From Octopus vulgaris (lineage: Eukaryota), in contig OX597832.1 of NCBI GenBank assembly GCA_951406725.2, forward strand, positions 22,196,001 through 22,260,000: a stretch of DNA of 64,000 nucleotides, read 5' to 3'. Both the position numbers and the translations under genes were made by a program. The notes under the pieces were generated by a model. The model was not told where the DNA came from. It ran no database searches and worked only from the letters and a program-made list of their open reading frames with translations. Of the stretch, positions 1,763-61,468 are shown in pieces (position 1 is the first letter of the stretch; each line of letters opens with the position of its first letter).

Positions 1763-2908
1763 ATAATAATTCATATACGCGAACAGTGTTGATAGATAGC
1801 ACCTGTGTTAAAGTACGCGATGTCAGAAACTTTAATTCAATGACTGGGGAAGCTTCGATTAAAAAAACGAAAAAGAAAAAGAAGACTATTTGTATTTTTT
1901 ATTATATTCTGTGGTGAAATCCGCTAGACCACAACACGGCAGCGAACCATCGTGGGAACCACTGCTGGTTTCGACCGGTTAGAAATACCAGCTGAATTTC
2001 TCTTTTCTTATACACTACCAGACGGGATTTCGGAACAGCTATCACTATTTCATGGGGGAAGGAAAAAGGTACGGAAGTAAGAGAGAGGTGGGGGACAAAA
2101 AAAAATAGGAAAAAGGATTGAAATTTTGTGTGTGTGTAAGTGGGGGGGTGGTGTTTAGAATCCTAATTTTTGTTGCATGAAACAGAAATACTAAAATAAA
2201 TAAAGGGGGAAAACTCCCAATTCTTTGTCCCTTTTTGTGTATCCCTACGAGGTAATGGTAGCTCTTCTGAAACTCAGCTCACTACTTTTTTATCCTTTAC
2301 CATTTTACTTGTTTCGGCCATTAGACTGCGGTCATGCTGGGGCACCGCCTTGAAGAATTTTAGGCGAACAAATCGATCCCAGTACTTTTTTGGGGCGGGG
2401 GTAAAGAATACGTACACCACCCGTTTTCGTCTTTTTTTCTTTTTTCGCCTGGTACTTATTCTATCGACCGTTTTTGCTGAACCGTTAAGTTACAGAGATG
2501 CAAACACACCAGTGGACAAGCGGTGGAGGGGTAACAAAAATTAAGAACAGAGACACACATCATCATCGTCATCGTCATCATCATCCTTTTGCTTCCACTT
2601 TCTATGCTAGCATAAATAAAACGGTTTGACTGGAGATCTGCACCAGGTATATATCAGCCGAAACGTTGTGTTGATAACAAACAAGATGAGGACAAATATC
2701 TGTCGAATGTAAATGATGTACATAATTCCTCATAGGCACAAGAGTGGCTGCGTGGTAAGTAGCTTGCTTACCATCCACATGATTCCAGGTTCAGTCCCAC
2801 TGCGTGGAGCTTTGGGCAAGTGTCTTCTACTATAGCCACAGGGCCGACCAAAGCCTTGTGAGTGGATTTGGTAGACAGAAACTGAAAGAAGCTCGTCGTA
2901 TATACGTA

Positions 2909-3580
2909 TCATCATCATCATCGTTTAACGTCCGATTTCCATGCTAGCATGGGTTGGACGGTTCAACTGGGGTCTGGGAAGCCCGAAGACTGCACCAGGC
3001 CAGTCAGATCTGGCAGTGTTTCTACAGCTAGATGCCCTTCCTAACGCCAACCACTCCGTGAGTGTAGTGGGTGCTTTTTATGTGCCAACGACACAGGTGC
3101 CAGACGAGGCTGGCGAACGGCCACGCTCGGATGGTGTTTTTTATGTGCCACCAGCACGAAGGCCAGTCAATGCGATACTGGCTACGGCCACGTTCGGATG
3201 GTTTTCTTATGTGCCACCGGCACTGGTACCACAAAACTACAAATTCCATTGATGTTCATCGATTTTGATTTGATTCTTTGATTTTTGATTTTCGATTTTC
3301 ACTTGCCTCAACAGGTCTCCACAATTAGAGTTATGTGTTCCAAGAAGGAAGGTATGCACAGGTGGACTGACTACGTCCCAGGTAGGGGCCATGGGTTATG
3401 GCTTCACTTGTCCTGCCAGGTCTTCTCGCACACAGCATACTTCCAAAGGTCTCGGTCTCTGGTCATTTCCTCAGTGAGACCTAAAGAGCGAAGGTCGTTC
3501 TTCACCACCTCGTCCCAGGTTTTCCTGGGTCTACCTCTTCCACAGGTTCCCTCAACCGCTAGGGTGTAGCACTTTTTCAC
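2909..3580 (-). mobile_element. RTE-clade LINE 3' fragment inserted inside a CORE-type SINE
   Basis: VEGTCGRGRPRKTWDEVVKNDLRSLGL...DRDLWK, an RTE ORF C-terminus. 3' end ggacgttaaac(gat)n. Confidence 0.85.
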
Positions 3581-16164: not shown

Positions 16165-16675
16165 AGGAATTGTGGCACCTGTGCCGGTGGCATGTGTAAA
16201 AAGATTCGAGCGAGGTCGTTGCCAGTACTGCCTGACTGGCTCCCGTACCGGTGGCACATAAAAAGCTCCCTATTTCTTTACTACCCACAAGGGGCTAAAC
16301 ACAGAGGGGACAAACGGATTAAGTCGATTATATCGACCCCAGTGCGTAACTGGTACTTATTTAATCGACCCCGAAAGGATGAAAGGCAAAGTTGACCTCG
16401 GTGGAATTTGAACTCAGAACGTAACCGCAGGCGAAATACTGCTAAACATTTCGCCCGGCGTGCTAACGATTCTACCAGCTCGCCGCACGTAAAAGCACCC
16501 ACTACAGTCTCGGAGTGGTTGGCGTAAGGAAGAGCATCCAGCTGTAGAAACTCTGCCAAATCAAGATTGAAGCCTGGTGCAGCCATCTGGTTCGCCAGCC
16601 CTCAGTTGTTCCTCCAACCCATGCTAGCATGGAAAGCGGACGTTAAACGATGATGATGATGATGATGATGGTGGT
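16165..16675 (+). mobile_element. RTE 3' UTR fragment interrupted by a SINE (16270-16487)
   Basis: gccggtggcac..aaaagcaccc units and tail gctagcatggaaagcggacgttaaacgatgatg. Confidence 0.75.
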
Positions 16676-19013: not shown

Positions 19014-19442
19014 TGAAATATCTAAAGTATAATCAGAAATATTTAAACAATATTTTTAAGATATAAATAATATAATAATTTTACTTATAATAAACTCTAT
19101 TATCAAACTAGAAACATAGAACTTAACAATTATGATTATATCAAAATCGACTATAATGTTAAATATTAATTTTAATTTATAAGGTAGGAAACCCATCCAT
19201 AATTTAATATCGGTATTAGTCTATATCTAATTACATAAATATTTAAAAATGACTAATATATATAAATTATCAATGAAAATATATAAATGTATATAAATAT
19301 TATAATTAAGATCTAAAATAATCTCTATAAATAAATATATATGCACATATAATAAAAACCTAATAAATTAATTTTTCATATTTAAAGATGAAATAGCTAA
19401 TTTCAAAATACAAATAAACAAACTTAAACGAACTTTCAGAAA

Positions 19443-19860
19443 TCATCATCATCATCGTTTAGCGTCCGTTTTCCATGCTAGCATGGGTTGGACGGTTCTA
19501 CTGGGGTCTGTGAAGCCAGAAGGCTTCATCAGGCCCAGTCAAATCTGGCAGTGTTTCTACGGCTGGATGCCCTTCCTAACGCCAACCACTCCGTGAGTGT
19601 AGTGGGTGCTTTTTACGTGCCACCCGCACAAGTGCCAGACAGCTGGCAAATGGCCACGAACGGATGGTGCTTTTTATGTGCCACTGGCACGAGGGCCAGG
19701 CGAGGCTGGTAACGGACACGAACGGATGGTGCTTTTTACGTGCCACCGGCACGAGGCCAGTCGGGGCGGCGCTGGCAATGGTCGCGAAACGGAAGGTTCT
19801 CTTACATGCCACCGGCACTGGTAATACATCTGCAATTTCCATTGATCAATTTCGATTCTG
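19443..19860 (-). mobile_element. RTE 3' UTR fragment nested in the PLE remnant
   Basis: Homologous to 2909-3270, with (CAT)n tail and ~60-bp tandem gtgccaccggcac units. Confidence 0.8.
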
Positions 19861-24261: not shown

Positions 24262-24324
24262 TTTATTTTTGATTTGTTTTATATATTACTCAGTGTAAAA
24301 GTTATTTTGTCTAGAGCCCATCCA

Positions 24325-24770
24325 CATCATCATCATTATTTAATGTCCGCTTCCCATGCTAGCATGGGTTGGACGATTTGACTGAGGACTGGTGAACGAG
24401 ATGGCTGCACCAGGCTTCAATCGGATCTGGTAGAGTTTCTACAGCTGGATGCCCTTCCTAACGCCAACCACTCCAAGAGTGTAGTGGGTGCTTTTACGTG
24501 CCACTGGCATGAGGGCCAGTCAGGTGGTACTGGCAACGGCCATGCTCAAATGGTATTTTTTATGTGCCACCTGCACAGGAGCCAGTCTAGCGATGAATGT
24601 TTTTTGATGTGCCACTGGCACAAGTGCCAGTAAAGCGACGCTTGTAACGATCATGCTCAAATGGTACTGTTTACATGCCACCGGCATGGAAGCCAGTTAG
24701 CTGCTCTGGCAACCATCATGCTTGGATGGTGCTCTTAGCGCTCCACTAGCACGGATGCCAGTCATTGAAC
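24325..24770 (-). mobile_element. RTE 3' UTR fragment
   Basis: Same tail and tandem gtgccac units as the other copies. Confidence 0.75.
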
Positions 24771-25839: not shown

Positions 25840-25867
25840 CGTGTGTGTAACATATATATATATATAT

Positions 25868-26104
25868 CATCATCATCATCATCATCATCGTTTAACGTCC
25901 GCTTTCCATGCTAGCATGGGTTGGACGGTTCGACTGGGGTCTGGGTAGCCCGAAGGCTGCACCAGGCCAGTCAGATCTGGCAGTGTTTCTACAGCTGGAT
26001 GCCCTTCCTAATGCCAACCACTCCGAGAGTGTAGTGGGTGATTTTATGTGCCACCGACACAGGTGCCAGACAAGGCTGGCGAACGGCCACGCTCGGATGG
26101 TGTT
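25868..26104 (-). mobile_element. RTE 3' fragment flanked by ~200-bp direct repeats
   Basis: Near-identical to 2909-3140. Flanks 25641-25867 and 26105-26294 are duplicates of each other. Confidence 0.85.
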
Positions 26105-26167
26105 TTTATAGAACTATTACTGAATATCTCTCTTTGGGAGATTTAGAAATAATGTTTCTACACACAT

Positions 26168-26200
<33 letters not shown>

Positions 26201-26836
26201 AACACACACACTCACACACACACAGAGTTATAATATATGTATGTGTGTGGATGTATTTATGTATATATATATATGTAACATATATATATATATACATATG
26301 TAATATATATATATACATTACACACACACACATATATATATATGTATATGTAATATATATATATATATTACATATACATATATATATTACATACATATAT
26401 ATATGTATATATATATATATACATAGATAGATAGATAGGTACACACACACACACACACACACATACACACACATAAATATATGTGTACATTTATATATAT
26501 GCAAATATATACATAAACACATTCACACTTAGATTTGTTAGTGAGTGACATTTTCATACTACGGCGCACTCACCCCATTTTGTAACAAGCAAGCAGTTCT
26601 TATGTGTTTGGAAAGTCATCAAAAATTCTTTATTGATAAATAAAACACCGAGAGAGAATAAGAGAAGAGGCATCAACCAATATTCAATATTCAACGGAAT
26701 CGTAGATAAATCATGAAATCTTTTATTCATAAGAGAAAGCAGAATAGATTTAAATAAGCTAGAATCGGAGATATGAAATTAATACTTAACCTTTTCGCTT
26801 AACTAACGTTTACTTGATGTATTAATAATAATAATG

Positions 26837-36446: not shown

Positions 36447-36498
36447 AGCGTCAGATCATCGATGATTTCGGATAAGGTTAATCCTCATCAGTGACGCT
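36447..36498 (-). ncRNA. Canonical type I hammerhead ribozyme
   Basis: Minus strand reads AGCGUCA-CUGAUGA-GGAU uaaccuu AUCC-GAAA-UCAUCGAUGA-UC-UGACGCU. It has a perfect core, 7-bp stem I, 4-bp stem II, palindromic stem III and an AUC site. Confidence 0.88.
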
Positions 36499-46452: not shown

Positions 46453-47007
46453 TGTATGTATGCATGTATGTATGTATGTATGTATGTATGTATGTATGTA
46501 TGTATGTATGTATGTATGTATGTATGTATGTATGTACGTACGTACGTACGTACGTACGTACGTATATATAGCGATCCTCTCATGTTTGAGCTGCTCGGTT
46601 TGAATAACAGCTAACTTCTGGTATAGGAACATCCCAACCAAAAACTCTAATGCACATATCAGTCTTTAACCAGTAACTATATTCGAGTAATCATTGGCAT
46701 GACGAAAGACTGAGAATCGAAAATTTGATTGACGAGTCAGAGCATTGTACGTACATTTGATTTAAATAGGAAAAAACATATATTCTATAAATTTCTTCCA
46801 GACTGTTCCTATTTTCCATCGATAAAAAACGTCACGCATCATAAAATGCTCAATTTATACATCTCGGATTATGTCATGCTGATGAATTCAAAAAAGAATG
46901 AAATAGTGCTATACACGATTACTCCTGACTAGAAATTTTACCAGCTTCGTAATGATCAAACAAAAAAATAAGTGAATATATTTATTCCATACTTCTTCAT
47001 CCTTATT

Positions 47008-47360
47008 ACTTGTACTTGTACTTGTGGCGACATTCACCCTGGGCGGGTTGAGTCGGCTTCTTCAACCATGGAAGAAGTTTCGTGGGAATATGTGGATTTC
47101 ACAAGCGGTCCCCAACAATCCCGAATGTAGAGACATCCTGTTTGCCGTAGATTGTCCGCAGACGCAGGGACAGAACGACCGAGGAGCCGCCGTTTGCCGA
47201 AACAGACACTCCGAGGATTTTCACAAGAAAATACCACTCGGTGTCAGACCAATCCGCCTTGGGTGGCCCTACCAGGAACCGAAGTTCCCGACGGCATCGC
47301 TCTGACACTACCCGTTGCCAGCGTCCCCACCACGGTGAGGAGGGGATGGACTTTGGGGAC
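47008..47360 (-). mobile_element. Full-length non-autonomous RTE-derived element with (CAAGTA)n tail and 12-bp TSD
   Basis: TSD ttcatccttatt (46996-47007) / ttcatcctcatt (47361-47372). 3' tail caagtacaagtacaagt. RTE-type 5' UTR motifs ccgtggtgggg and cctggtagggccacccaagg. Confidence 0.75.
47247..47360 (-). ncRNA. Candidate HDV-like ribozyme at the 5' end of the RTE-derived element
   Basis: P1 GUCCCC/GGGGAC. P3-L3 CC-UCACCGU-GG. P4 closed by UGGC/GCCA and containing GGGAAC-UUCG-GUUCCU. J4/2 CCCA. P2 CCAUCCCCU/AGGCGGAUUGG with bulges. Confidence 0.55.
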
Positions 47361-48995
47361 TTCATCCTCATTCCTTACTTTCTAATTCAAACTTCTAATC
47401 CAACCAAATACTTTGAAGAAATGATTATCTCCCTTGTATTAATTGTCCGCTAGGAGAGACGACATGTCATTTAAATTTGATTGAATTTAAAATTGATAAT
47501 CTATCAGAGAGTCAGTTTCAGTCTAATGCACATCTTCGATAACGTCTCACCTTCCATTGATTGATATAATATTTCTATCAATATTTTCTATACATGAGCA
47601 GACATGGCTGTAAGTTAAGAAACCTGTTTTGTGATTACGTGGTTCCAGGATCAGTCCCACTGTGCGGCACCCCGGGGCGATTATCTTCTGCTATAGCCCC
47701 GGACCGATCAATGCCTTGTGAGTGAATTTGGTAGACGGAAACCGGAAACTGTGCGAATGCTCCTTGTGTGTGCGTGTGTCTCAGTGTGTATGTGTGTTTG
47801 TGTGTGTATGTGTGTGCATGTGTGTGTGTCTATGTGAGTGTTTGTGTGTGTGTGTTCGTGTATGTGTGTATATATGTGTGTATATGTATGTGTGTGTTTG
47901 TATATATACATGTGCGTGTGTATATATATATGAGTGAGTGTATACATACATGCATGTGTATATTCATACATGTGTGTGTATACATACATGTGTGTGTATG
48001 TGTGTATACATATATATGTATGTGTTTGTATACATACATGTGTATGCTGTGTGTGTGTGTATGCTGTGTGTGTGTATGCTGTGTGTGTGTGTGTATGCTG
48101 TGTGTGTGTGTGTGTATGCTGTGTGTGTATGTGCATATGTATGTTTACATACATGCGTGTGTGCTCTGTGTGTGTCTTTGTTTTTATGTTTGCGTTTGTC
48201 CCTTCACCACTTGACAACCGGTTCAGCAAAACACCCCAACAGAAAATATCGCAGACTTAAAAAGTAAATCCTGGGTGTCGATTTGTTTGACCAAACCCTT
48301 AAAGCCGGTGCCCCAGCATGGCCGCAATCCAATGGTTGTCACAAATAACAGACAAAACATAAAAGATATCGAGTGTTCTTAAACAGACGCAATCTGCTGA
48401 ATTATTATCACAGCCTGAGTATTACATTTCACTCAACTTATCGATGCAGAGTATAATGAATGACTTACAGGAAACGTGTCTATTTAGCAATTCTTTTAGC
48501 GATTTTGTTTTGGTGAAATGTTCGCCTGCTTCCGAGTCTAGCTGCGAATTTATTTGTGTAAACTGAGCTGTGTATACGAACATCTCTTTTTAGATGGACC
48601 GTCTGTGCTATGCAAAACGCTTGATGATGTTTTCATATACTATGGCAATGGCGATGGCAATCACATCAGAGATATTATATATTTCAACAGGATATTTAAC
48701 ATGACCTTTCTGTAGACGCTATCGAATGTTTTGAAGGAATCTATATATACGCAGGCATGGATATGTGGTAAGAAGCTTGCTTCCCAACCACATGGTTGTT
48801 CTGGGTTCAGTCCCACTGCGTGGCACCTTGAGAAAGTGTCTTCTACTATAACCTCGGGCCAACCAAAGCTTTGTGAGTGGATTTGGTAGACGGAAACTGA
48901 AAGAAACTCGTAGTATATATATATATATACTCTTTACAGCTAGCACGGATTTTTGTAACGACATTTCGTATCCGAGACGGCAGATGTAAACAAGA

Positions 48996-52023: not shown

Positions 52024-52085
<62 letters not shown>

Positions 52086-52122
52086 AAAAAAGGAGATGTC
52101 GAACACGAGTGGTGATATATAA

Positions 52123-53094
52123 AAAAGGAAATGAAGAAAATGCTGACAAATAATTGAAGTAATTTAAGTAATTTAATTAGGTGAAAGTTCTTTTTACCGG
52201 TTGCGCATTTGTTATGCTTATCAAAATATAAAAGAGAGATTAGAGTCTGTCTCTTATATGTGAAAAAAAGAGGCTCCAGAGTTGTTTGGGATTTGCTTGG
52301 TTTCGCACCTAAAATTTTGATTGGTCATTATGAAGGGGTCACGTGAATGTTTGAATGGAAGTTGGTGTTGGGGTAAGAAAAAAGGCTACAGAGAAGTTAA
52401 AATTTGGCTAGTGTCCCGCCTAAAATTTCTTATTGGCCATAATAAAGAGGTCACGTGAATGTTTAGAATTTTCGAAAATAGTGTTGTTGAAAATTCTTAT
52501 TGTTCAGGCTGGTCAGTAGACGTCATGTGGATATTTTAAATAGCTTTTTAGCGCGTAGTTAGGGAGTGTATTTTCCGCTTGACTGGATAAGTAAGTTCGT
52601 TTAGAACAGGGAGAGCTGTATGTATGTATGTGTGTGCGCGCGCGGGCGCGTGTGTGTGTTTATATGTATGTTGGGGCGCGCGCGCGTGTATATATGTGTG
52701 TGTGTGTGGGTACAATTTTCAATATTTATAGTTCTGCTGGCCTTGTGCCTGTATCGGGAAGCAACGTATTTGTGTGAAGTCAATATTTACAGCCATTTCC
52801 AAAAAATAGTGTTGGATGTTTTGCACCCGTATTCAATTATGTGTATGTGTGGAACCATATATTTGTGTGTGTCATGGTGTTAATATCTGGGTAAAGGTGT
52901 GTGTAGGGTGTGTGCAGGTGTAAGTGTGTTTGTTGTGGGTTCGTGTTAGGGGCATGTGTTTAGAAGTGGTCTGTATTTATTAATAAGGTGGGATTCCATG
53001 GTTATTCGCTGGGTATGAGTGGCATTGTCTTTAAATTTGTAGAGGGGAAAGATTCTAAAATTGGGATGGAGTTGTGCGGCACAGGTATCAATAT
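52123..53094 (-). repeat. Left inverted arm (3' end of ORF + pLTR) of the PLE
   Basis: Reverse complement of 54777-55743 with only a few substitutions and microsatellite slips. Junction at ...acaggtatcaatat|caactt. Confidence 0.95.
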
Positions 53095-54925
53095 CAACTT
53101 AGCACTCTCCACCTTGGAAAATGGAACATATTACGAAAAGGCTGAACACTACAATCAACAGAAAATTATGAGAAACTTAAAAACCCTGATCAACCCCCAC
53201 AAAGAAGAACTCACTAACAAAGAATTCAACTTCATCACAAATTTCACTAGTAAAACCAGCCTCTTCTACGGTATTCCCAAAATTCATAAAAGCGAATTAA
53301 TAAGTAAGGCATGCAAGGAAGCCACAAACTCTGTAATCAATGTCCCCTCACCAAATGACCTCAAATTGAGACCTATAATAGCAGGTCCCGCTTGCGAAAC
53401 CCACCGCCTTAGCAACTTCATTGATACCCTTCTCAAGCCGTTCCTCAAACACATTAAAAGCTACATAAGGGACGATCTAGATATGCTCAACCACCTCCCC
53501 AATACACTTCTTGCTGAACAAACCCTGCTAGTAACATTCGATGTAGTCAATCTTTACTCCAACATCCCCCACAACCTAGGAATAGAAGCTATCCAATTCT
53601 GGCTGGATAATTACTCCAACGAACTCCCACACCGCATCAAAAAGGAATTTATTTTAGAAGGACTCAAATTCATCTTAGAGAATAATTTCTTCACCTTCAA
53701 CAACAAATTCTACAGACAGAAATCAGGGACGGCAATGGGAACGAAAACAGCTCCCACTTACGCCAACTTAGTCATGGGATACCTGGAAATCACTCTCTAT
53801 AATAACGTTCTTAACCAATTTGGCACCACTCTCCACACACACATAGAGAAGAACTGGAAGAGATATCTTGATGACTGCTTCATCCTTTGGCCCGAAACCG
53901 TCGAGAAGCTTAACGAATTTCACACTCTTATAAATGGGCTCAACACAAACATTATTTTCACAATGGAATACAGCCCTCAACAAATTCCCTTCCTCGACAT
54001 CCTCATTAAAATTCACAACAAAAAAATAGAAACAGACATATACTACAAGCCCACAGACTCCAAGCAATACCTCCCTTTCAATTCATGCCACCCTAGACAC
54101 GTTAAAATTAACATTCCCTACAACTTAGCCAAGAGAATTTGCACTATAGTCTCCAATAAAAACACCCGTCTCTTACGTCTACAAGAACTCAAGGGCACAT
54201 TAACAAGCAGGGATTACCCCACGTCACTAATTGACAATGGGATCCAACGCGCCCTAAAACTCAGCACGCAGGAACTTAGACGCCCTAAACCTGTTACATC
54301 GAAACCCCATACTCTACCATACATCTCTACACACAACCCCCTCAACAATGAAGCTTTTGACACCATCCTCCAGAACATTCCTGTATTACAAAAGGACCAT
54401 AGAATGAACCAAATCCTCCTAACACACGAAATCATAAAGAGCAAAAGGCAACCCAAATCATTGAAAACCATCCTAACAAATGCCAAAGTACTGCCAACCA
54501 CAACAACTAAACCCACAGTAAACAAATGCAATAGACCCAACTGTGGTATATGCATCAACCTAATAGAAGGTCCGGAATTCCTTTTTAAACAAGGACAACG
54601 TTTCACAGTAAAACACAACTTCACATGCGCATCAGAAAACCTAGTATATGTCTTAACTTGCTCGGGCTGTAATGAACACTACATAGGCCAAACAAAAAAT
54701 AGCCTCCGCCAACGCATGACTGTCCACAGATCCCAAATAAAAATACAGGAATATAGAAAAATAGCATTTAGTGCACATATTGATACCTGTGCCGCACAAC
54801 TCCATCCCAATTTTAGAATCTTTCCCCTCTACAAATTTAAAGACAATGCCACTCATACCCAGCGAATAACCATGGAATCCCACCTTATTAATAAATACAG
54901 ACCACTTCTAAACACATGCCCCTAA
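52988..54925 (+). CDS. PLE polyprotein (reverse transcriptase + GIY-YIG endonuclease), N-terminally truncated; the first ~36 codons are antisense sequence from the inverted arm
   Basis: RT motifs FYGIPKIHK, LRPII, FDVVNLYSNIP, QKSGTAMG, RYLDDCF, PFLDI and YYKPT. Cys linker CNRPNCGIC. GIY-YIG motif LVYVLTC...YIGQT...RMTVHR, ending in PLLN. No stops from 53096 to 54925. Confidence 0.93.
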   Translation: MGFHGYSLGMSGIVFKFVEGKDSKIGMELCGTGININLALSTLENGTYYEKAEHYNQQKIMRNLKTLINPHKEELTNKEFNFITNFTSKTSLFYGIPKIHKSELISKACKEATNSVINVPSPNDLKLRPIIAGPACETHRLSNFIDTLLKPFLKHIKSYIRDDLDMLNHLPNTLLAEQTLLVTFDVVNLYSNIPHNLGIEAIQFWLDNYSNELPHRIKKEFILEGLKFILENNFFTFNNKFYRQKSGTAMGTKTAPTYANLVMGYLEITLYNNVLNQFGTTLHTHIEKNWKRYLDDCFILWPETVEKLNEFHTLINGLNTNIIFTMEYSPQQIPFLDILIKIHNKKIETDIYYKPTDSKQYLPFNSCHPRHVKINIPYNLAKRICTIVSNKNTRLLRLQELKGTLTSRDYPTSLIDNGIQRALKLSTQELRRPKPVTSKPHTLPYISTHNPLNNEAFDTILQNIPVLQKDHRMNQILLTHEIIKSKRQPKSLKTILTNAKVLPTTTTKPTVNKCNRPNCGICINLIEGPEFLFKQGQRFTVKHNFTCASENLVYVLTCSGCNEHYIGQTKNSLRQRMTVHRSQIKIQEYRKIAFSAHIDTCAAQLHPNFRIFPLYKFKDNATHTQRITMESHLINKYRPLLNTCP

Positions 54926-55630
54926 CACGAACCCACAACAAACACACTTACACCTGCACACACCCTACACACACCTTTACCCAGATATTAACACCATGAC
55001 ACACACAAATATATGGTTCCACACATACACATAATTGAATACGGGTGCAAAACATCCAACACTATTTTTTGGAAATGGCTGTAAATATTGACTTCACACA
55101 AATACGTTGCTTCCCGATACAGGCACAAGGCCAGCAGAACTATAAATATTGAAAATTGTACCCACACACACACACATATATACACGCGCGCGCGCCCCAA
55201 CATACATATAAACACACACACGCGCGCGCGCACACACATACATACATACAGCTCTCCCTGTTCTAAACGAACTTACTTATCCAGTCAAGCGGAAAATACA
55301 CTCCCTAACTATGCGCTAAAAAGCTATTTAAAATATCCACATGACGTCTACTGACCAGCCTGAACAATAAGAATTTTCAACAACACTATTTTCGAAAATT
55401 CTAAACATTCACGTGACCTCTTTATTATGGCCAATAAGAAATTTTAGGCGGGACACTAGCCAAATTTTAACTTCTCTGGAGCCTTTTTTCTTACCCCAAC
55501 ACCAACTTCCATTCAAACATTCACGTGACCCCTTCATAATGACCAATCAAAATTTTAGGTGCGAAACCAAGCAAATCCCAAACAACTCTGGAGCCTCTTT
55601 TTTCACATATAAGAGACAGACTCTAATCTC

Positions 55631-55677
55631 TCTTTTATATTTTGATAAGCATAACAAATGCGCAACCGGTAAAAAGA
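55631..55677 (+). ncRNA. Variant hammerhead-like motif in the PLE pLTR (mirror copy at 52189-52235, minus)
   Basis: UUGAUAA-GCAU aacaa AUGC-GCAA-CCGG-UA, with UCUUUU/AAAAGA flanks. This is hammerhead topology with a substituted core and a palindromic mini stem III. Confidence 0.55.
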
Positions 55678-55738
55678 ACTTTCACCTAATTAAATTACTT
55701 AAATTACTTCAATTATTTGTCAGCATTTTCTTCATTTC

Positions 55739-55784
<46 letters not shown>

Positions 55785-55847
55785 TATATAAACGCTGTAA
55801 CAGTTAAATTCACTTCATAACTTAAAATTGAATAGAAGATCTGAAAT

Positions 55848-60196: not shown

Positions 60197-61152
60197 ATCA
60201 ATAGGGATCGTTATAACAGAAATTTCAATATGAAGTGTAAAGGGGAGGACAGGTGAGGTTTACCCGTGGAAAGAAAAGCCTACGGAAAAGACCACGGTAA
60301 CCTCGGTCAATGAAGTCACATTTTATATTTCTTTTTTTTTTTTTTTTTTTTTTGCAAATAAGCAACTCTCTGTTTTCGATTTCTGGGTTCATAGGACTAT
60401 GCTCAAGGTGGCTTCGTCATTCATACGTGCCATTCTTGCTACATTCACCCATCTTTTTTTAAAACATTCGCTAGACAAAACTTGCCTCTCTACTCTCACT
60501 TTCCTTTTCAAGTGGTACTTGAAGAAGTTGATGAGAGATTGACCAGAGAGGAAAGTGTTTGTCTCCAATCCTTTCAGACGCGTCCACCAGATACATTCTT
60601 TCGCCATAGCCACAAGGATGATGAAAATAGCTCTTCCTTCCCGTTTGAAGGAAGGAGGCGTCACAATATTGACGATAGACTCAGCTGATAAACCGACTCG
60701 TCCCACACGTGACAGCAGTTGTTCGACATAAGCCCACAGGTCGGAAATTGTTGGACACTGAACGAGTGCGTGCAGAACGGTTTCGTCGCTCTGACCGCAT
60801 CTCGGGCAGGTCGGCCCCGTGTTTCTCGAGCCGTGTCTGTAGAGCTTATCCCGAACGGGTAGCGCTTCTCGGTAGCACTGCCAGGCCAGGGATCTCTGGA
60901 AGTTGTCCATGGGCCCTGGCCCGAAAGTCGTCCTGAACAGGCGGGTCAGGTACTCCTCGTCGACGTCCAGGTTCGCCCCGAGCTCGTCGTCGTACCTCCC
61001 CTCCACTAAACCCCTATAGAATGCTTTGGTTGTGTTGAAGTCACTTAAGGTCGACCCAGGACGGCAGAGTTGCTTAAGAGCAACGCGACACTCGCGGTGC
61101 CATTCGCCCTTCCTCGGCCTCTTTTTGATCCACGACTGCAGTTCGGTCATGG

Positions 61153-61153
<1 letters not shown>
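59984..61153 (-). mobile_element. Tx1/L1-clade LINE 3' fragment (ORF2 C-terminus + 3' UTR) inserted in (GATA)n
   Basis: ORF 60389-61150 contains W...EALPVRDKL...CPRC...ETVLHALVQC (zf-RVT CCHC) and IWWTR. The 3' end aataaagaaa is followed by (CTAT)n. Confidence 0.88.
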
Positions 61154-61198
<45 letters not shown>

Positions 61199-61212
61199 GT
61201 AGATAGATAGAT

Positions 61213-61468
61213 AACTTTCTTTATTGGCCACACAGAGCTGGACACAGAGGGGACAATTACAAATGTAGAGCTTTTCTTTTCGGAGATGGAAAAGGAAAGG
61301 GAAGAAAAAAAAAGGGAAACAAATGTAAAATTTCGATCAAAAGGGATCGGAAGAAAAAAAAGCGATCAAAAGGGATCGTGTATTACAGAAAGAAAAAATT
61401 ATTTTTTTTCAAAGTAACAAACAAGATTAGGTTCGTCCGTGGAAAGAAAAGCCTACAGAAAAGACCAC

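Follow-up and report, generated by a model that had tools for sequence, protein, structure and literature searches.

A broken copy of a two-ended mini-RTE family with a predicted HDV-like head in Octopus vulgaris

The window analysed here is a 64,000-nucleotide stretch of the Octopus vulgaris genome (NCBI GenBank assembly GCA_951406725.2, contig OX597832.1, positions 22,196,001 to 22,260,000 of the forward strand). It carries a short retroelement of 354 nt on the minus strand (47360–47007, read from the sequence). The features of this copy are as follows:
47360–47372, minus strand: 5′ copy of the TSD, 12–13 bp, with G47360 common to TSD and element
47355–47360, minus strand: P1 5′ strand, family nt 3–8 only; the family's first two bases (GC) are missing
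47342–47349, minus strand: predicted P2 5′ strand (CCA-x-CCCC), whose pairing partner is deleted in this copy
47329–47341, minus strand: predicted P3 (two C-G pairs and a U.U) and L3 UCACCGU (47338–47332)
47319–47328, minus strand: P1 3′ strand (8 nt) and the UG expected to pair with the CA of L3 as P1.1
47230–47314, minus strand: large branched P4 insert with the C(UUCG)G hairpin at 47289–47274; its 3′ side is cut off
47229–47230, minus strand: point at which 24 nt of the family (nt 134–157) are deleted
47067–47229, minus strand: remaining RTE 5′ UTR and about 23 codons (candidate ATG at 47136), in frame with the parent ORF start in locus L091
47025–47069, minus strand: RTE 3′ end, comprising the last ~10 codons, a stop at 47036–47034 and a short 3′ UTR
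47007–47024, minus strand: (CAAGTA)3 tail, the same as at the LINE 3′ ends
46995–47007, minus strand: 3′ copy of the TSD, with A47007 common to TSD and element

The duplicated target (47372–47360 and 47007–46995) is 13 bp long with one mismatch, or 12–13 bp given the shared G47360 and A47007. An earlier note on this DNA had described a 12-bp TSD with one mismatch and a 5′ end at, or within 1 nt of, G47360; the duplication stands, but the 5′ end of the family lies two bases further 5′. The 6-bp P1 (GUCCCC/GGGGAC) drawn there is present, but P1 of the family can reach 8 bp (GC-GTCCCC start), the window copy being 5′-truncated. L3 UCACCGU, the C(UUCG)G hairpin and the (CAAGTA)3 tail had been recognised correctly. 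The proposed length of 353 bp is one short of that of the window copy and does not describe the family, in which 45 of 50 complete copies are 369–412 nt long. The 5′ and 3′ parts meet through an overlap of 2–3 nt. It was also right that there is no real ORF, except that the last ~10 codons and stop of an RTE ORF and ~23 codons in frame with its start are kept, and that there is no tRNA head: ARAGORN found no tRNA in the window and A/B-box regular expressions gave no match.

The two parts of the element were traced to a single LINE, which bears out the proposed fusion of an RTE 5′ end to an RTE 3′ end. The tail-anchored locus L059 continues upstream into RT-ORF sequence; from the 794 candidates that a query based on it returned, 30 loci were retrieved, and every one of them ends in the tail of the window element, matching its last 50–63 nt at 89–100%. 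Locus L091 (C4:96495000-96502500) is a full-length LINE copy of ~3.4 kb, inverted over ~1.47 kb at its 5′ side and flanked by a clean TSD of 12 bp; its 5′ part opens with the element head and runs into an APE domain, the remainder encodes RT, and the pieces match Pfam Exo_endo_phos and RVT_1 above cut-off. The window copy corresponds to LINE nt 3–133 and 158–320 (280 of 294 bases identical to the APE-bearing LINE copy L157), followed by the last 63 nt. On this alignment the short element is the first ~320 nt and the last ~63 nt of one 3.4-kb APE+RT LINE, which was itself found in broken form.

The parent shows the architecture expected of the RTE clade (APE and RT in one ORF, ~3.3 kb, a short 3′ UTR with repeats). 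Matches to its protein are labelled craniofacial development protein 2-like, presumably the usual label for RTE endonucleases, and some relatives carry PF20049. Its assignment to the RTE type follows architecture and match labels rather than a phylogeny that includes named references for each clade. Its nearest named proteins are labelled Octopus vulgaris (83–88% identity), and the closest named RT matches come from tapeworms. No intact parent ORF was found in 27 strong matches (150 scored of 30,389); the longest open frame, among close copies, has 465 aa. Because of this, family A, as the family of the window copy is termed below, looks extinct, the ORF survey being a lower bound.

A young RTE family (L260–L263), whose copies are ~99% identical, have tandem repeats at the 5′ end and keep intact ORFs of 1095 aa with a C-terminal zinc finger, is possibly RTE-2_OV of PMC9115989. 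It was considered as the mobilising partner and rejected, with 26% RT identity and no head or tail match. An Ingi/Vingi parent had been suspected from what was taken to be a resemblance of L3 to L1Tc; this was dropped once the actual parent LINE was found. The window also holds a (GAT)n-tailed short repeat with internal tandem units (2908–3223, 16485–16670, 19442–19752, 24319–24594 and 25866–26301), whose sequence is related neither to that of the element nor to that of the 1095-aa RTE. The expectation that the parent differs from this (GAT)n-tailed family agrees with the absence of similarity between them (best other match E 0.77).

Family A is dispersed and multi-copy, with variable TSDs and neither protein-coding capacity nor a small-RNA head. 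A search of the 2.8-Gb genome with the element gave 1,670 first-look candidates, 40 of which were scored, at 85–94% identity excluding the window copy; head-only and tail-only queries gave 892 and 1,307 candidates. One 26-nt stretch has 226 exact genome occurrences and is present in 20 of 68 sampled copies, which gives ~770 copies, probably an underestimate. By these counts the family would comprise roughly 800–1,700 dispersed copies. The 68-copy set consists of 80 head- or tail-anchored loci minus five (window copy, query copy, repeats) and minus seven short matches. A longer deletion derivative, L088, has ~715 nt. Many TSDs start with a tail-like AGT, in agreement with the correlation described in PMC6007223.

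The 5′ boundary of the family is fixed. Among 30 tail-anchored copies, nine start at GC-GTCCCC, five at nt 3 (as does the window copy), 12 at nt 5–19 and four beyond nt 50; none starts 5′ of G1, tandem heads excepted. Only one matching pair was found among 52 upstream flanks, through a 16-nt self-duplication of the head, as had been anticipated for an element with a defined 5′ end. In three public runs with three organism labels, contigs pass from the head to unrelated flanking sequence between positions −2 and +3. At a further set of loci (L037, L097, L131, L125, L158 and L206) the first 16–57 nt are duplicated just before the head, as if re-primed at the 5′ end.

The junctions between the two parts fall into at least five classes clustered near nt 310–335. 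Two exact sequences account for 31 of 67 copies (19 and 12), and eight copies were not parsed. A search with a diverged APE protein revealed sister RTE families B and C with homologous 5′ UTRs, which also have short derivatives with junctions at a similar place to those of A. The bunching of the classes, the similarly placed junctions in B and C and a 7-bp inverted repeat flanking the junction would suit an origin in which short copies do not propagate and each arises when the reverse transcriptase skips the middle of a full-length LINE RNA. Such an origin is considered highly unlikely for the family as a whole: the two common junctions are expected if a few masters were amplified, and a duplex of the two junction regions is no better than that of shuffled sequences (643 of 1,000 as stable). 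By the same figure, long-range pairing of the deletion ends found no support as a cause of deletion. Since there are at least five junction classes, two of them with 19 and 12 copies, the short element arose several times, with amplification of a few forms.

The head of the family fits an HDV-like nested double pseudoknot composed of P1, P1.1, P2, P3 and P4. The fold was examined on 24 copies, eight each of A, B and C, hand-picked for full-length heads; for P1 and the base of P4, pairs were counted in a register particular to each family, as MAFFT misplaces gaps there. P1 forms 8/8 pairs in A, 7/7 in B and 6/7 in C, in differing sequences that each start from the family's own 5′ end, with lengths of 8, 7 and 6 bp, respectively. 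The core comprises P3 with two C-G pairs and a U.U, P1.1 (CA/UG), P2 (CCA-x-CCCC/GGGG-CUC-UGG) and a long, branched P4. J4/2 reads GGCAGA, GGCCAA and GGCTAA in families A, B and C, at the same place in all three, and a G-C-N-R-A J4/2 directly precedes the P2 3′ strand in A, B, C and L174, a distant RTE 5′ UTR in a metagenome contig (58% APE identity). L174 has the same core with almost no P4; in L174:28-108 the HDV-like core is compact, and a fold-back at the contig end replaces the P1 5′ strand. The metagenome scan yielded three loci only. The putative catalytic C lies at family nt 149.

Across the 24 copies, 93.7% of cells pair, compared with 33–48% when partners are slid, and there are four family-level double changes. 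P1.1, P3 and P2 are the same in all three families and thus contribute no covariation signal. The number of double-change cells, 33, was reached in 0 of 500 shuffles; counted by pairs, 5 of 51 show double changes, a number that 379 of 500 shuffles equalled or exceeded, and three related families make this thin evidence. A fold descriptor, written like the structure itself after these sequences had been seen, matches 11 of the 24 copies (A 6/8, B 3/8, C 2/8), always from the family's first base, and gave no match in 3,000 dinucleotide shuffles or 638 window tiles. Outside its training set, the covariance model scores L168 at 91 bits and L174 at 37 bits (E 1e-7); it gave no match in L175, L176 or L260. 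A strict core check was passed by 29 of the 68 family A copies, and C149 is kept in 61 and lost in seven.

The search with curated HDV-like models proposed in the earlier note found nothing: no Rfam HDV-like or twister family matched the window copy or six intact loci. L174, with the most canonical core, was among the six loci missed by Rfam, so that test has little power. The core departs from the usual form in the U.U of P3 and in the length of P1 (8 bp in A, 6 bp in C), HDV-like P1 usually being ~7 nt (PMC3774820). A plain minimum free energy (MFE) fold of the head has z −1.7, which is uninformative because such folding cannot form pseudoknots. A different helix, pairing the 5′ end with the region of the ORF start, was set aside, there being no compensation in family B (by eye). 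On the modelled fold, intact members likely form an HDV-like ribozyme with their first ~165 bases, presumably cleaving before G1.

The window copy itself is, by alignment, a 5′-truncated and internally damaged member of its family. The 24 missing nt comprise the P4 3′ strand, A152, the P2 3′ GGGG and J4/2, in which the catalytic C is predicted at family nt 149. What remains is P1 6/8, P2 0/4, P4 base 0/5 and no C149, and the descriptor rejects the copy. The covariance model gives it 121 bits, through a weaker fallback GCAAA at 47197–47193, and an intact copy 192. Possible substitutes for J4/2 (CCCAA near 47262, which sits within P4, and GCAAA at 47197 and near 47145) were tried, and none passes the descriptor. 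The suggestion of an HDV-like 5′ ribozyme thus suits the family head but not this copy, which lacks the predicted catalytic strand, and the J4/2 C proposed for mutation lies inside the deletion. With the first two P1 bases and the 24 nt bearing the predicted catalytic C and P2 3′ strand gone, the copy is predicted to be unable to self-cleave, residual activity being unlikely; a cleavage test on it would therefore mislead, and it is the wrong choice for such an assay.

The head might instead serve mainly as an internal promoter or protein-binding structure, the 5′ end being a transcription start and the HDV-like fold vestigial or slow in A. The non-canonical core, with its U.U in P3 and 8-bp P1, is in keeping with this, as is the T that precedes G1 in 9/9 full-length tail-anchored copies (background 30%). 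That T could reflect an RNA start one or two bases before G1; it belongs to the TSD in several copies, and an A added to the cDNA without a template, or a preference in the choice of target, would account for it as well. Up to five tandem heads stand between single TSDs at several loci, and an efficient ribozyme would remove them if they were in RNA. In a set chosen for likeness to the window copy, several members with nearly complete 5′ ends have the same 15-nt deletion spanning J4/2. In L1Tc the same 5′ 77 nt (Pr77) act as promoter and ribozyme (PMC3185411).

A promoter or protein-binding role nevertheless seems unlikely to be the main one, since the 5′ end follows the start of P1 in three families despite different P1 sequences and C-N-R-A is kept in A, B, C and L174. 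Furthermore, in the 68-copy set, whose members were not chosen by their middle, eight of 16 deletions of ≥5 nt overlap nt 145–157, each with different ends; that the breakpoints all differ suggests that the J4/2 deletions originated per insertion without amplification.

Other origins of the head were weighed. An RTE with 5′ twister variants is known, Perere-3 of Schistosoma (PMC8501958), and the closest named RT matches are from tapeworms, as noted; a decayed tRNA or SINE head is the other candidate. Both are extremely unlikely, given that the head is the LINE's own 5′ end, that the HDV topology explains the conserved bases and that the Rfam twister, tRNA and A/B-box searches described above gave nothing. 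No tRNA/5S/7SL-type SINE head with Pol III boxes was found in the window copy by Rfam, ARAGORN or A/B-box expressions.

Taken with the predicted ribozyme, the window element is probably a broken member of a two-ended mini-RTE family whose intact heads likely cut themselves and whose copies were likely pasted by the LINE protein; the window copy is predicted to be dead. Read-through transcription of an intact copy would give an RNA that the predicted ribozyme cuts before G1. The LINE protein would then recognise the 3′ end common to both elements and, using the microsatellite tail, start synthesis at a nick, by target-primed reverse transcription in trans. Reverse transcription may often stop 2–20 nt early or skip the structured J4/2 region, producing dead copies such as that in the window. 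From cleavage onward these steps, mobilisation in trans included, are putative.

Some loci carry several heads. Head-to-tail ribozyme-domain units of 187 nt precede one body at no fewer than 17 loci, recorded under L100 (C20:62398337-62401402), L109, L182–L196 and L257–L259. An exact search for nt 187 joined to nt 1 gave 24 occurrences, spread over 17 loci, against 0 for the control; when the gap was left free, the junction position was the same in 22 of 23 matches. The tandem loci have their own flanks, 2–5 heads each and at least five body classes. Non-CpG variants are common to a unit and its own body in 10 of 27 comparisons, as against 23 of 432 for other bodies. The tandem junction reads GTTT; GCTT is found in 9 of 15 scorable bodies and in 10 of 35 ordinary copies. 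The junction variant GCG, by exact search, occurs on C1, C14, C20 and at five loci of C28; the variant GTG is seen only on C29, C30 (six loci) and C34, within the junction search and without a separate exact search.

These data are not fully explained by a single master lineage or by a jump at every insertion. The best guess is that the tandem junction spread by conversion between copies on one chromosome. A more far-reaching proposal, rated as distinctly improbable, is that the 187-nt units are an HDV-type counterpart of retrozymes, in which two cuts would yield a circularised monomer and the junction spreads by same-chromosome ectopic conversion; this would explain both the ≥5 body types and the chromosome-sorted junction variants, and the tandem heads would matter more if they gave circles. 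No RNA run was listed as containing the element. Four runs that may be RNA contain it, and in one of these the tandem junction is present at low depth, but they were given no weight as evidence; no bridging of the junction was found among the records listed for four further runs (31-letter rule). Family B has a tandem head too, at L202 (C27:33325117-33325470), with a unit of ~169 nt ending shortly past P2.

In family C, at 8 of 30 loci and in addition at L144, a foreign sequence that these loci have in common precedes the head and is fused to it at L3 (the loci are L144, L237, L240–L243, L247, L251 and L252; ≥150 nt are shared in L144 and L243). These loci are without P1 and the P2 5′ strands. 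Three other family C loci (L232, L234 and L255) have in common a stretch of ≥30 nt 5′ of the head, which is probably an inverted LINE piece or marks a composite subfamily.

The overall design is already known from bipartite non-autonomous RTEs, NARTc and R2 SIDEs, and the family is a further example. Kojima (2018) described bipartite non-autonomous LINEs derived from RTE, Ingi, Vingi and R2, noted that such elements mostly retain the 5′ end of the LINE, tied these intact 5′ ends to predicted ribozymes and suggested that 5′ ribozymes favour bipartite derivatives and must go when a foreign head is added (PMC5786205). The foreign heads of family C fit the idea that a new head requires the loss of self-cleavage, and the family makes the suggestion directly testable (compare the 8/30 loci with a foreign head and no P1). 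RTE-N2_Lch, RTESINE1/2, WALLSI3 and Bov-A likewise consist of RTE 5′ and 3′ ends only, with no small-RNA head and a microsatellite tail; here, in contrast, the RTE lineage is different and each of three sister families shows several independent deletions (PMC5786205). No octopus example of a bipartite RTE appears in the sections of that survey covered here.

NARTc/L1Tc Pr77 and RIME/ingi are also alike, a short dispersed derivative sharing the LINE's HDV-like 5′ ribozyme with cleavage at +1; NARTc/L1Tc, however, has an Ingi-type parent and an active 77-nt ribozyme, whereas in the octopus family the parent is an RTE and the predicted ribozyme spans ~165 nt and includes a branched P4 (PMC3185411). 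R2 SIDEs and R2/R1 hybrid SIDEs similarly join a 5′ ribozyme to a 3′ end by internal deletion and are mobilised in trans, but R2 SIDEs are rare and confined to rDNA, whereas the octopus family is dispersed, with hundreds of copies (PMC3414825). HDV-like ribozymes occur in RTEs and some SINEs (PMC6765202). Those of RTEs (Ruminski et al. 2011, as cited in PMC5786205 and PMC6765202) stand at the 5′ end of non-site-specific elements and were proposed to release them from host co-transcripts; in comparison, P1 here has 6–8 bp and P3 a U.U. The 187-nt tandem units at 17 loci resemble non-LTR retrozymes in size (150–300 bp) and layout, but retrozymes have hammerheads and abundant circles, whereas here predicted HDV-like units, known from DNA, precede an RTE body (PMC7761336).

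The word 'ribozyme' is absent from the main text of two octopus TE papers (PMC13282606, PMC9115989); the repeat library in the supplement of the former may already hold family A. Searches of papers, as distinct from Repbase and Dfam, listed no report of this family or of a mollusc counterpart. As the class is known, the value of the family is mainly practical: it supplies, in a mollusc, hundreds of naturally varying copies of a predicted HDV-like ribozyme, with P1 of 6, 7 or 8 bp and a large P4 insert.

Several further elements are seen in the window. The stretch 52044–55790, with ~1-kb inverted repeats of 96% identity and a 653-aa open frame (52964–54925, plus strand), is presumably a Penelope-like element, RT-like and GIY-YIG-like parts being supposed in that frame. 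An open frame at 60389–61336 (minus strand) is taken to resemble the C-terminal part of an L1/Tx1-type ORF2. At 46863–46934 (plus strand), 60 bp from the element's 3′ TSD, lies a minimal hammerhead-like motif with the core and a 4-bp stem II present and a flank that is single-copy within the window; it matches Rfam HH9 at 29.6 bits (E 1e-4), under the gathering score of 52. This motif resembles the type I hammerhead motifs described for Penelope elements (PMC7761336). A second hammerhead core pattern, with stem II paired, is located near 36491 (minus strand).
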